Part shown: piece by piece, positions 51,839 through 54,987 of the stretch
Layout of the letters: the number at the start of each line of letters is the position of its first letter
Position numbering within the stretch: the first letter of the stretch is position 1
Assembly (NCBI GenBank): GCA_963700635.1
Contig: CAVOYH010000004.1
Span: 157,760-221,759, forward strand
Direction: 5' to 3'
Length of the DNA: 64,000 bases
Origin: an uncultured Bacteroidota bacterium
GTDB lineage: Bacteria; Bacteroidota; Ignavibacteria; UBA10030; UBA6906
Made by a program: the position numbers and the translations under genes
Notes under the pieces: model-generated
Told to the model about the DNA's origin: nothing
What the model saw: only the letters and a program-made list of their open reading frames with translations
Databases searched by the model: none

Positions 51839-51867
51839 TTGAAAATTTCTGAGAGAAGTCGTATATT
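51839..51867 (+). promoter_or_regulatory. Promoter-like TTGAAA-N17-TATATT directly upstream of tRNA-His
   Basis: -35 at 51839-51844 and -10 at 51862-51867. The tRNA 5' end (51878) is 11 nt downstream of the -10. Confidence 0.45.
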
Positions 51868-51877
51868 AAGTATTCTT

Positions 51878-51951
51878 GCTGGCGTAGCTCAGTTGGTTAG
51901 AGCACCAGATTGTGGATCTGGGGGTCACAGGTTCAAATCCTGTCGCCAGTA
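51878..51951 (+). tRNA. tRNA-His (anticodon GTG) with non-canonical acceptor end (no encoded G-1; G1:U72; A73; no CCA)
   Basis: Hand-folded cloverleaf:
- acceptor GCTGGCG / CGCCAGT
- D arm GCTC-AGTTGGTTA-GAGC
- anticodon arm CCAGA-TTGTGGA-TCTGG, anticodon at 51912-51914
- variable loop GGGTC
- T arm ACAGG-TTCAAAT-CCTGT
- discriminator A at 51951
- base -1 is T (51877). Confidence 0.85.
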
Positions 51952-51989
51952 CACCCTCCCCCTCCTCATACGCGAACGCAATTCCGACT

Positions 51990-53454
51990 ATGGCCGACGA
52001 CCGAACTGTTGAACCACGGCTGCTGCGCGGATTCAGGGATTACCTGCCCGCGCAGATGAACGCCCGACTCAAACTCATTGCCACCATCCGCCAGGTCTAC
52101 GAACGGTATGGGTTTCTTCCCCTTGAAACGCCCGCGCAGGAATACAAGGTCACGCTCCTGGGGTATGGCGAAGAAAACACCAAACAAATCTTCTGCTTTA
52201 AGAACCCCGAAGAAGAAGATGTAGCGCTGCGGTTCGATCTGACCGTTCCCCTCGCCCGTGTTGTCGCACAATACCCCGATCTGCCTCTCCCGTTTCGCCG
52301 TTACCAGATTGCGCCGGTCTGGCGTGCCGACAAACCGGATCCGGGCCGGTTCAGGGAGTTCCTGCAATTCGATCTCGACTCCGTGGGAGTGTCGTCTCTC
52401 GCCGCCGATGCGGAGATTCTGACCGGTATGTACGATACGCTTGAGGCGCTTGGACTGCATCAGTCCGTTGTCCGGTTCAGCAGCCGGAAAGTGCTGAACA
52501 GCCTGCTGGACTATGCCGGGATACCCCGTACGATGGCGCATGGGGTGTTTCGTGTGCTGGACAAGCTGGAGAAAATTGGCCGGGAAAACGTCGCGGCGGA
52601 ACTTGCCGGAGGACGTGTTGATGTCTCGGGCGACAAAATTCCGGGGTTGGGCCTCGGCAGAAAAGCTATAGACCACATTGAAGAGTTTCTGGTTTTGCCG
52701 AAAGGGACGCGGGAAGAGGTCTTGCAGGGAATCACACGTCTGTTTGCCGGGGTCGATACAGCTTCCGAGGCAATACACGAGCTCGATTTTCTCTGCACAT
52801 CACTTGACGTTCTGGAGATTCCAGAGGAAAGAGTGGCCCTTGACCTGAGCATTGCGCGGGGGCTGGACTACTATACCGGACCGGTGTTTGAAGCGATGCT
52901 CACAGAAGCTCCCGAGTTCGGGTCAATCTTCGGGGGGGGGAAGATACGACGGTCTTGTTGAACGATTCCTGGGTCGGAAGATTCCCGCTGTCGGGGCCTC
53001 TATCGGTGTAGACCGCCTCTTTGCGGCCATGCAGAAGCTTGGCCTCTTCTCCATGGGGAATGCCACGGCGCAGGTTCTGGTAACCATCATGGAACCCGGC
53101 CGGCTGGCGGATTATCAGCGCCTTACGAGACAGCTGCGGAACGAAGGCATCAACACGGAAATGTATCTTGGCGAAGAGCGTAGTCCGGGCAAACAACTCC
53201 AGTACGCCAACCGGCAGCATATCCCTGTCGCCATCCTCATGGGCAGCAACGAGTTCCAACATGGCGAGGTAACGATCAAGGACCTTGTGCTGGGTGCAGC
53301 AATGCAGGACAAAAAGAAAACCATGACCGGAAAAGACCGAGAACGGTATCTTCAGGAAACGCGGACGGTGCAGGTGACGGTTCCTCTTGCCGAATGTGCC
53401 GTCACGATCAGATCGATCCTCGCCCGTCACGATAAATCACAACCTCCGGGATGA
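51990..53454 (+). pseudogene. hisS: Histidyl-tRNA synthetase (long, divergent type), interrupted as sequenced by one extra G in a G9 run
   Basis: Start at ATG 51990 (MADDRTVEPRLLRGFRDYLP). The tracked start at 51912 lies inside the tRNA. Motif 2 is FRRYQIAPVWRADKPDPGRFREFLQFD. ORF1 ends ...FGGGKIRRSC, while ORF2 carries GGGRYDGLVERFLGRKIPAVGASIGVDRL. Removing one G from 52932-52940 restores motif 3. Confidence 0.9.
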
Positions 53455-53469
53455 ACGAGGGATCAACCC

Positions 53470-54987
53470 ATGCCCAAGACTCTTCAGATTGATGGTAGCT
53501 CGCTGACCATCGATCGTGTTGTTTCGGTGGCGCGTCATGGTGTGCGGGCACGCCTCTCGCCGCTGGCACGTGAAGGAATGCGACGTTCCCGCGAATGGGT
53601 AGAGCGTGCGGTCCGTGAACACGCGGTGGTGTACGGTGTGACCACGGGGTTCGGGGCATTTCAGAACGTTTCCGTCCGTTCCGAACGCCTCCGGGAGCTT
53701 CAACGGAATCTCATCCTCAGCCACTGTGCCGGAGTGGGCCCTCCGTTCGCGGAAGAAATTGTCCGTGCCATGCTCCTCCTTCGCGCGAATGCGCTCGCAC
53801 GGGGTCATTCGGGGATACGTATCGCCGTCGTCGAGCGGCTCCTGGAGATGCTTCACTGTGGTGTCCATCCTATTGTGCCCGAACAGGGCTCTGTGGGCTC
53901 GAGCGGTGATCTGGCTCCACTTTCGCATGCTGCGGCAGTCCTCATCGGTGAAGGTGAGGCGATCTATCGGGGGAAACGGATGAGCGGGAGGAAGGCGATG
54001 CGCGCTGCCGGTCTCAAACCGGTCGTGCTGGAAGCGAAGGAAGGACTGGCTCTAAACAACGGCACACAGGCAATGACCGCCGTTGGGGTGCTGGCTGTTC
54101 ATGATGCCGGCCGCCTGGCGGATCTTGCTGATATTGCAGCCGCATTGAGTCTGGAAGCTGTCAAGGGAAAAAGTACCCCGTTTGCGGAAAAAGCCCTGGC
54201 CACACGCCCTCATGCAGGACAGGCCCGCTCCGCCCGTAATATCCGGACAATGATCGCCGGGAGCCGGCTGGTGGACCGTGTAGACCATGATACCCGGAAC
54301 AAGGTTCAGGACTCGTATTCTATCCGCTGCGCTCCGCAGGTGCACGGGGCATCTCGGGACGCCATTGAATACGTGGCGCGCGTTGTGGAGACGGAGATCA
54401 ATGCGACAACCGACAATCCGCTGATCTTCCCGGATTCCAACGAAGTCTTCAGTGTCGGGAATTTTCACGGACAACCCGTTGCTCTCGCAATGGATTTTCT
54501 CGCGCTCGCGGTTGCAGAGCTTGGAAATATTTCGGAGCGGCGGACTGCCAAATTGATGGACCGCGAGCACAGCTGCGGCCTCCCGCCGTTTCTTGCCGTG
54601 GATGGCGGACTCGAGTCGGGCCTGATGATCGAGCAATATACCGCTGCAGCGCTGGTGTCGGAGAACAAAGTCCTCATCCATCCTGCCAGCGGTGATTCGA
54701 TCCCGACCTCTGCGAACCAGGAAGACCATGTGAGCATGGGGACCATCGCGGCCCGGCAGGCGCGCCAGGTCATTCAGAACGTGGAACACGTGATTGCCAT
54801 AGAACTCCATGGCGCCATCGAGGCCCTTGCGTATCGATCCGAACGTCCGGGTGAAGGAACGCGCAAGGCGCTCCGCATGTTGCGAGAAGTGGTTCCCCCT
54901 CTCCGCGGTGACCGGCCGTTGTCTCAGGACATCGAAGCCCTTGTGCAGTTCATCCGCAACGACGCCCTTCGCGCCCTTGTCCGTTAG
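53470..54987 (+). CDS. hutH: Histidine ammonia-lyase
   Basis: 505 aa. YGVTTGFG, HAL-type LILSHCAGVG, MIO region GSVGSSGDLAPLSH, and NQEDHVSMG. Confidence 0.9.
   Translation: MPKTLQIDGSSLTIDRVVSVARHGVRARLSPLAREGMRRSREWVERAVREHAVVYGVTTGFGAFQNVSVRSERLRELQRNLILSHCAGVGPPFAEEIVRAMLLLRANALARGHSGIRIAVVERLLEMLHCGVHPIVPEQGSVGSSGDLAPLSHAAAVLIGEGEAIYRGKRMSGRKAMRAAGLKPVVLEAKEGLALNNGTQAMTAVGVLAVHDAGRLADLADIAAALSLEAVKGKSTPFAEKALATRPHAGQARSARNIRTMIAGSRLVDRVDHDTRNKVQDSYSIRCAPQVHGASRDAIEYVARVVETEINATTDNPLIFPDSNEVFSVGNFHGQPVALAMDFLALAVAELGNISERRTAKLMDREHSCGLPPFLAVDGGLESGLMIEQYTAAALVSENKVLIHPASGDSIPTSANQEDHVSMGTIAARQARQVIQNVEHVIAIELHGAIEALAYRSERPGEGTRKALRMLREVVPPLRGDRPLSQDIEALVQFIRNDALRALVR

Follow-up and report, generated by a model that had tools for sequence, protein, structure and literature searches.

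The DNA examined here (hereafter the window) is a 64-kb stretch of contig CAVOYH010000004.1 from an uncultured, Ignavibacteria-like Bacteroidota bacterium, and it carries a histidine tRNA gene followed on the same strand by hisS, which encodes histidyl-tRNA synthetase (HisRS), and by hutH, which encodes histidine ammonia-lyase. All features of the window described below lie on the + strand. The G-1:C73 base pair is the textbook, near-universal mark of tRNA-His. The original prediction, made from the sequence alone, held that this tRNA gene departs from that rule and that, together with the adjoining synthetase gene, it encodes an atypical identity set of the Caulobacter type. ARAGORN identified tRNA-His(GTG) at 51878-51952 as the sole tRNA in the window, and the Rfam tRNA covariance model RF00005 matched 51878-51951 over its complete length (model positions 1-71; 74.5 bits, E-value 1e-16); the end at 51952 reported by ARAGORN includes one extra base, the encoded C74. 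Direct reading of the sequence reveals that position -1 (51877) is T, so that no G-1 is encoded. The acceptor stem is GCTGGCG/CGCCAGT, with a wobble pair between G1 (51878) and U72 (T at 51950) followed by C2:G71, and the discriminator, A73, is at 51951. The D-loop comprises nine nucleotides (nt), AGTTGGTTA, and contains U20a, the anticodon loop is TTGTGGA with G at position 37, and CCA is not encoded, A73 being followed by CACCC. With T-1, U72 and A73, the gene has none of the tRNA features of the canonical bacterial identity, in which an encoded G-1 is paired with C73 and G1 with C72. The predicted anatomy of the tRNA-His gene was thus borne out by ARAGORN, by the covariance model and by the sequence itself.

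The hisS gene (51990-53454) starts with an ATG at 51990 and encodes 487 amino acids once one G is removed from a run of nine (52932-52940) that breaks the reading frame inside motif 3. A run of eight G would give FGGGRYDGLV, and dropping one G restores the class II motif 3 as FGGGRYDGLVERF. The corrected protein scores 362 bits against the hisS equivalog TIGR00442 (cut-off 286.75) and contains PF13393 and the HGTP anticodon domain PF03129, in agreement with the original prediction, which had placed a HisRS of about 487 residues just 3′ of tRNA-His after correction of the G run. The HisRS of close relatives are 70-87% identical to the window enzyme. Its best matches among solved structures are 6nhi, the Nostoc enzyme 3net and human cytoplasmic HisRS, with Thermus thermophilus and Escherichia coli far weaker, which places it in the eukaryote-like half of the family.

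To compare motif 2 and the anticodon-binding domain, we used an alignment of 69 sequences. The motif-2 loop of the window enzyme, RADKPDPGRFREFLQFD (amino acids 112-128, 52323-52373), aligned as RADKPDPGRFREFLQ with RHERPQKGRYRQFHQ in E. coli, RQERPQAGRLRQFHQ in canonical HisRS from the same order as the window, RADRPQKGRFREFYQ in PDB 6nhi and RNEKPGPGRFREFLQ in alphaproteobacteria. Asp117 occupies the site of E. coli Gln118 and Lys115 that of T. thermophilus Arg115. At the Gln site (118 in E. coli, 117 in T. thermophilus), the residue is Asp in the window (KPDPG) and Gly in alphaproteobacteria (KPGPG), and Gln is kept as RPQKG in E. coli and 6nhi. Gln117 of T. thermophilus is reported to contact the acceptor end (PMC4357726), and the motif-2 Gln has been described as covarying with G-1:C73 (PMC3937112). 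The motif-2 strings quoted in the original prediction (GRFREFLQ for the window, GRYRQFHQ for E. coli) are correct on the alignment, but the Gln-to-Glu change within them is not the key one, as had been assumed: 6nhi (RPQKGRFREF) and human HisRS have Glu there too, and the relevant Gln lies six residues upstream. Loss of this Gln alone is insufficient as a mark of the G-1-less type, because two outgroup HisRS that lack it (L063 and L066) pair with canonical tRNA-His. The window enzyme also contains an insertion of 25 amino acids, AAMQDKKKTMTGKDRERYLQETRTV (amino acids 436-460, 53296-53370), in the last beta-hairpin of the anticodon-binding domain; an insertion in this domain had been predicted and proved to be real on the alignment. 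E. coli, the canonical HisRS of the same order and the Gln-retaining CPR group lack this insertion; every member of the G-1-less clade (see below), including the alphaproteobacteria, has it, usually with a length of about 20 amino acids and the motif R-x-E/A-W ... GQ. The enzymes of Planctomycetota and Krumholzibacteria also align across it; the comparison excludes 6nhi, Nostoc and human HisRS, whose transcribed sequences stop just before this region. Mapping with the E. coli/T. thermophilus residue offset suggests that the Lys and Gln on either side of the insertion are the counterparts of the G36- and U35-reading residues of the T. thermophilus 4RDX complex (PMC4357726).

The assembly consists of 6 contigs totalling 4.2 Mb (completeness 97%, contamination 6.7%). 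It contains 47 tRNAs, only one of which is a tRNA-His, and a scan of the whole genome for the canonical C72-C73 tRNA-His pattern gave no match. PF13393 matches two loci in the genome, hisS and one on contig C1. The gene on C1 is without an anticodon domain and scores 281.6 bits against TIGR00443 (cut-off 271.65); it overlaps the start of a short-form hisG, was rejected as a second HisRS and is hisZ, which encodes the regulatory subunit of ATP-phosphoribosyltransferase. No further copy of hisS was found in the genome when E. coli HisRS was used as the query, and the Thg1 family (PF04446), sought in the whole genome, gave no match at E ≤ 1. With regard to the other tRNA genes, C74 after the discriminator is encoded by nearly all of the 47 and CCA by five, and ARAGORN found no tRNA-Asn in the whole genome. 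The genes for tRNA-Thr(CGT) and tRNA-Thr(TGT) (C1:389831-389904 and C3:1617217-1617290) share their acceptor stem, GCTGGCG/CGCCAG, with tRNA-His and differ from it at the acceptor end only at positions 72 (C versus U) and 73 (U versus A). Since the stems are otherwise equal, U72 and A73 are the only acceptor-end differences between tRNA-Thr and tRNA-His in this organism.

The type of synthetase and the type of tRNA covary among the 41 relatives that we compared, whose loci were read with ARAGORN. In family f1, to which the window belongs, and in family f6, a long HisRS (58-87% identity) is accompanied by a tRNA-His with a base other than G at -1, G1:U72 and A73. Families f2-f5 and f7-f9 of the same GTDB order have a HisRS of 420-450 amino acids (approximately 30% identity) and a tRNA-His with an encoded G-1, G1:C72 and C73, the combination present in all nine canonical comparator tRNA-His genes. 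We also analysed 251 genomes sampled evenly across the phylum, using only obvious tRNA matches, as the loosened pattern (TGTG...GNTC) returned mostly noise. A G-1-less tRNA-His is present in exactly eight of these genomes, and the same eight have a HisRS of the G-1-less type (five from f1 and one each from f6, f16 and f17). The canonical tRNA-His pattern occurs in 232 of the 251 genomes and is absent from seven of the eight; one of the eight (G147) has a single, uninspected match to the canonical pattern and no second HisRS. HisRS resembling 6nhi (33-43% identity, no insertion) go together with canonical tRNA-His in the genomes checked. Among 36 unique G-1-less tRNA-His genes from the named loci and the relatives' genomes, G1:U72 and A73 are invariant (36/36), the 9-nt D-loop and G37 are found in 33, and the base at -1 is T in 26, C in seven, G in one and A in one.

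Three further genomes or loci stand apart. In genome G075 of family f1, 100% complete by marker estimate, neither hisS (only a hisZ-like match) nor the tRNA-His pattern was detected, a double absence that would be expected if the linked pair sat on one unbinned contig. Genome G288 (locus L068; approximately 0.8 Mb, or a mixed bin) has two histidine systems (C4:31571-32176, C16:17150-18421 and C22:51164-51204): an E. coli-like HisRS accompanied by a canonical tRNA-His (G-1/C73), and a Gln-retaining HisRS of the FREFLQFD type followed by a tRNA-His with T-1, G1:C72 and A73. On a Candidatus Eiseniibacteriota chromosome (L057, 2898-2974), a tRNA-His with T-1, G1:C72 and U73 lies directly 3′ of hisS; its HisRS retains the Gln (KPQLG) and has no insertion, and the tRNA set is neither canonical nor of the Caulobacter type.

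A maximum-likelihood tree of 66 HisRS was constructed with IQ-TREE (LG+C20, 1000 ultrafast bootstraps plus SH-aLRT) after removal of the motif-2 and insertion columns. The 48 insertion-bearing enzymes, including those of the window and the alphaproteobacteria, form a G-1-less clade with support of 97/93, and the canonical HisRS of the order to which the window belongs join E. coli across the longest branch (100/100). Within the G-1-less clade, family f1 groups with family f6 (100/100), the alphaproteobacteria and SAR11 are monophyletic (100/100) and a Planctomycetota enzyme is the sister of the alphaproteobacterial clade (96/92). The f1 plus f6 clade and the alphaproteobacterial clade are not nested within one another, and a quick tree on all columns agrees with the maximum-likelihood tree. 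Bins labelled Ignavibacteria or Ignavibacteriaceae (L030, L031 and L049) contain a second lineage of G-1-less HisRS (46-50% identity) in a clade of its own (100/100); in the genome of L031 the G-1-less tRNA-His does not adjoin hisS. The tree suggests more than one acquisition of a G-1-less HisRS within Ignavibacteria-like bacteria. The proposal that the window encodes a Caulobacter-type identity set as a linked tRNA and synthetase is supported by all three checks that had been suggested for it: the covariance model keeps the acceptor stem in register, with no G-1:C73 pair; a second tRNA-His, a second hisS and any Thg1 gene are missing from the genome, the other PF13393 match being hisZ next to hisG; and the HisRS groups apart from the canonical enzymes and, on the alignment, has no Gln at the motif-2 site.

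To examine how tRNA-His and hisS are arranged elsewhere, we surveyed 80 named loci from GTDB species genomes. In 41 of these, tRNA-His lies on the same strand as hisS and no more than 700 nt 5′ of it, with a spacer mostly of 2-98 nt, and the labels of the linked loci (Ignavibacteria/Bacteroidota, Zixibacteriota, Krumholzibacteriota, Planctomycetota, Acidobacteriota, Patescibacteria and Pelagibacterales) represent at least seven phyla. The linkage is frequent, not fixed, and the canonical hisS of the sister families does not adjoin tRNA-His. A hutH-like gene (40-88% identity) follows a G-1-less hisS in approximately 25 loci (L005-L038, from Ignavibacteria-like, Planctomycetota and other bins); in one Patescibacteria locus a hutH-like gene lies 5′ of hisS. 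The window tRNA-His is identical to Krumholzibacteria tRNA-His at 66-67 of 74 positions, the acceptor stem, D-arm and anticodon arm being identical, and to its order's canonical tRNA-His at only 50-53 of 74. A tRNA nearer to those of other phyla than to those of its own order speaks for joint arrival of the tRNA gene and hisS; convergent evolution imposed by the synthetase could still, to some degree, account for the likeness of a molecule of only 74 nt. Horizontal acquisition of the pair most likely took the form of a linked tRNA-hisS(-hutH) unit.

The remaining features of the locus concern its expression and its third gene. A promoter-like sequence, TTGAAA-17-TATATT (51839-51867), with 10 of 12 matches to the consensus, ends 10 nt 5′ of tRNA-His, and a spacer of 38 nt (51952-51989) separates tRNA-His from hisS. 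No terminator-like site was found between tRNA-His, hisS and hutH, and a Rfam scan of the spacer gave no further match. The hutH gene (53470-54987) begins 15 nt 3′ of hisS and scores 676 bits against TIGR01225 (cut-off 539); hutU sits elsewhere in the genome (C3:1198670). The HutH protein of the window has Ser-Ser-Gly (GSVGSSGDLAP) where the MIO triad is usually Ala-Ser-Gly.

Taken together, these results make it highly probable that the window encodes the sole histidine-charging system of the organism, and that this system is G-1-independent (Caulobacter-type), was acquired horizontally and replaced the canonical pair. The gene anatomy, the uniqueness of the pair in the genome, the family membership of the enzyme, its covariation with the tRNA and its phylogeny are established directly here. 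We envisage that a promoter just 5′ of tRNA-His would drive its transcription, probably along with that of hisS and hutH. RNase P would cleave at the ordinary +1 site, as there is no G-1:C73 pair to move it, such that the mature tRNA-His would begin at G1, and CCA would be added post-transcriptionally, as in most tRNAs of this genome. The HisRS, without the motif-2 Gln and with an insertion in the anticodon-reading hairpin, may then select this tRNA through the GUG anticodon together with U72 and A73, by analogy with the Caulobacter crescentus enzyme, the one member of the type for which charging of this kind is known and for which anticodon changes cost 91- to 1000-fold, U72C 91-fold and A73C 3-fold, and addition of G-1 brings no gain (PMC3064791). 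The acquired pair would have replaced a canonical G-1:C73 tRNA and a short HisRS, which are still carried by the sister families.

Several points weigh against this interpretation. For this organism, the mature 5′ end of the tRNA, the identity elements used and co-transcription are inferred by analogy. One promoter-like site was found where 1.0 is expected by chance, and the sequence is only suggestive as a promoter of the tRNA-His unit. In the four closest relatives (L004, L005, L006 and L046) the 1.5 kb around hisS contain no tRNA-His. The tree does not resolve the deeper branching order of the G-1-less clade and so points to no donor. Given the completeness (97%) and contamination (6.7%) of the bin, a second histidine pair could, strictly speaking, still sit on a missing contig. 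The remaining points concern the reading frame of hisS: a search for public sequencing reads that would distinguish G8 from G9 at 52932-52940 found none, and, genome-wide, runs of 8-9 identical bases join broken open reading frames in 8-9% of cases versus 6.7% at random positions, a frequency not above background, which leaves room for a real mutation in hisS.

If the frameshift were real, hisS would be a recent pseudogene or would be expressed via transcriptional or ribosomal slippage on the G run. The assembly does read nine G and, with no genome-wide excess of homopolymer-linked frame breaks, is not obviously full of such errors. However, we consider a real frameshift unlikely, because this is the genome's only hisS and the gene is essential, both of its halves are intact and conserved and lead to a normal stop, in all relatives (approximately 30) GGGRYD is read in a single frame from mixed Gly codons without a G run, and a further frame break in the same window, in msrB, suggests residual indel errors. 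On these grounds the nine-G frame break is most likely an indel error of the assembly. Two other runs in this assembly may likewise be homopolymer frame breaks: a G10 run approximately 2.7 kb before the window (G000:C4:155013-155022), which parts open stretches of 305 and 600 codons, and a C8 run (C3:1860905-1860912), which parts open stretches of 777 and 843 codons; in each case a 1-base change would join the two.

Other alternatives concern the tRNA's 5′ end and the origin of the pair. U-1 could be kept on the mature tRNA and pair with A73, giving an 8-bp acceptor stem that mimics G-1:C73, and the prevalence of T at -1 (found in 26 of the 36 unique G-1-less genes as well as in the window) and the T-1:A73 pair that ARAGORN adds to the stem in several loci are compatible with this. 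Yet U at -1 is generally preferred in bacterial RNase P substrates, and nine of the 36 genes have C (seven), G (one) or A (one), the C cases including members of the window's own family (L015-L017, L105 and L108), with A73 unchanged; a -1:73 pair is thus not maintained. An extra -1 residue is, moreover, no help to the C. crescentus HisRS (PMC3064791), and we regard retention of U-1 as decidedly improbable. Addition of G-1 after transcription by a Thg1-like enzyme, in the service of a G-1-dependent HisRS, is less plausible still and can almost be dismissed: A73 without an encoded G-1 is also the eukaryotic gene pattern, and the HisRS falls in the eukaryote-like half of the family, with 6nhi, 3net and human HisRS as its best PDB matches, but the genome has no Thg1 family match at E ≤ 1, the enzyme has no Gln at the motif-2 site and does have the anticodon-domain insertion that is typical of G-1-independent HisRS, and it clusters with the Caulobacter-type clade and not with 6nhi, Nostoc or human HisRS. 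With respect to origin, horizontal transfer and an independent loss of G-1 had both been offered in the original prediction. In favour of an independent loss, in which a HisRS inherited vertically by this lineage would have changed convergently, stands the argument that the alphaproteobacterial case is possibly convergent with eukaryotes (PMC5370408). Such a loss is nevertheless extremely unlikely here, as seven other families of the order hold an E. coli-like HisRS that is approximately 30% identical, the homologous insertion and the 97/93 clade are common to enzymes of many phyla, and the tRNA-His resembles those of other phyla more than it does the one of its own order. Of the two origins, horizontal replacement is the one supported, by the clade and insertion shared with the alphaproteobacteria, by the canonical pair in the seven sister families and by the occurrence of the unit in at least seven phyla.

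The system to which the locus is closest in character is that of the alphaproteobacteria. In C. crescentus, the tRNA-His signature comprises A73, G1-U72 and a 9-nt D-loop with U20a (PMC3064791). The G-1-less bacterial system has been placed only in an alphaproteobacterial clade and SAR11 (PMC3937112, PMC3245924, PMC3064791, PMC9976931), and loss of G-1 has been treated as a unique alphaproteobacterial event, even as a phylogenetic character (PMC3937112, PMC3245924, PMC9976931); for SAR11, co-transfer of tRNA-His and hisS is reported to have been discussed by Wang et al., as cited in PMC3937112. No report of such a system in bacteria outside the alphaproteobacteria was found in the searchable literature. 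The RRCH alphaproteobacteria (C. crescentus, Sinorhizobium; Ardell & Andersson 2006, Wang et al. 2007, Yuan et al. 2011, PMC3064791) share with the window a tRNA-His with no encoded G-1, G1-U72, A73, a 9-nt D-loop with U20a and G37, and a HisRS of approximately 480-500 amino acids that lacks the motif-2 Gln, has the homologous hairpin insertion and belongs to the same clade. They differ in that the window's host belongs to the Ignavibacteria-like Bacteroidota, in the Gly (KPGPG) rather than Asp (KPDPG) at the Gln site and in the length of the insertion (approximately 20 versus 25 amino acids), and their HisRS are only 40-42% identical to that of the window; in the Rhizobiales-type loci examined, unlike the window, tRNA-His is not directly 5′ of hisS. 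In SAR11 (Pelagibacterales), as in the window, a G-1-less tRNA-His lies immediately 5′ of hisS on the same strand, with a spacer of 2-8 nt rather than 38, but the HisRS sits inside the alphaproteobacterial subclade (100/100) and is 35-39% identical to the window's, the tRNA-His genes encode CCA and no hutH follows hisS.

Resemblance to other histidine systems is more limited. Canonical HisRS (E. coli; T. thermophilus 4RDX, PMC4357726) have the same class IIa fold, motifs 1-3 and HGTP anticodon domain, but are approximately 25% identical to the window enzyme, have approximately 420 amino acids with the Gln in RPQKG and no hairpin insertion, and pair with a tRNA that has G-1 and C73. In Acanthamoeba castellanii and Trypanosoma brucei, whose HisRS are G-1-independent (PMC3561963, PMC4338351), tRNA-His also lacks G-1, Thg1 is absent and recognition must rest elsewhere, but these are eukaryotic lineages with separate origins, and the trypanosomatid HisRS structures (3hri and 3hrk) match the window HisRS more weakly than the human enzyme does. 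At the level of sequence, the locus has every defining feature of the known Caulobacter-type system and differs from it in host phylum, in the residue at the Gln site, in insertion length and in linkage.

The locus contributes a clean contrast within one order, in which canonical and G-1-less pairs are found in sister families with perfect covariation of tRNA and synthetase, a natural experiment on the swap of an essential tRNA identity rule. A linked tRNA-synthetase unit is a plausible vehicle for such a swap, since the incoming pair is orthogonal to the resident pair, and loci of this kind offer further natural orthogonal HisRS/tRNA pairs for genetic-code engineering. We lean, by a modest degree, towards the broader view that tRNA-His-hisS(-hutH) is a self-sufficient mobile identity cassette, which would have displaced the canonical pair many times, in at least seven to eight phyla and at least twice in Ignavibacteria-like bacteria, and of which the RRCH/SAR11 system of the alphaproteobacteria would be an offshoot rather than an invention. 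If this is true, the G-1-less trait would be no safe synapomorphy for the placement of lineages such as SAR11.

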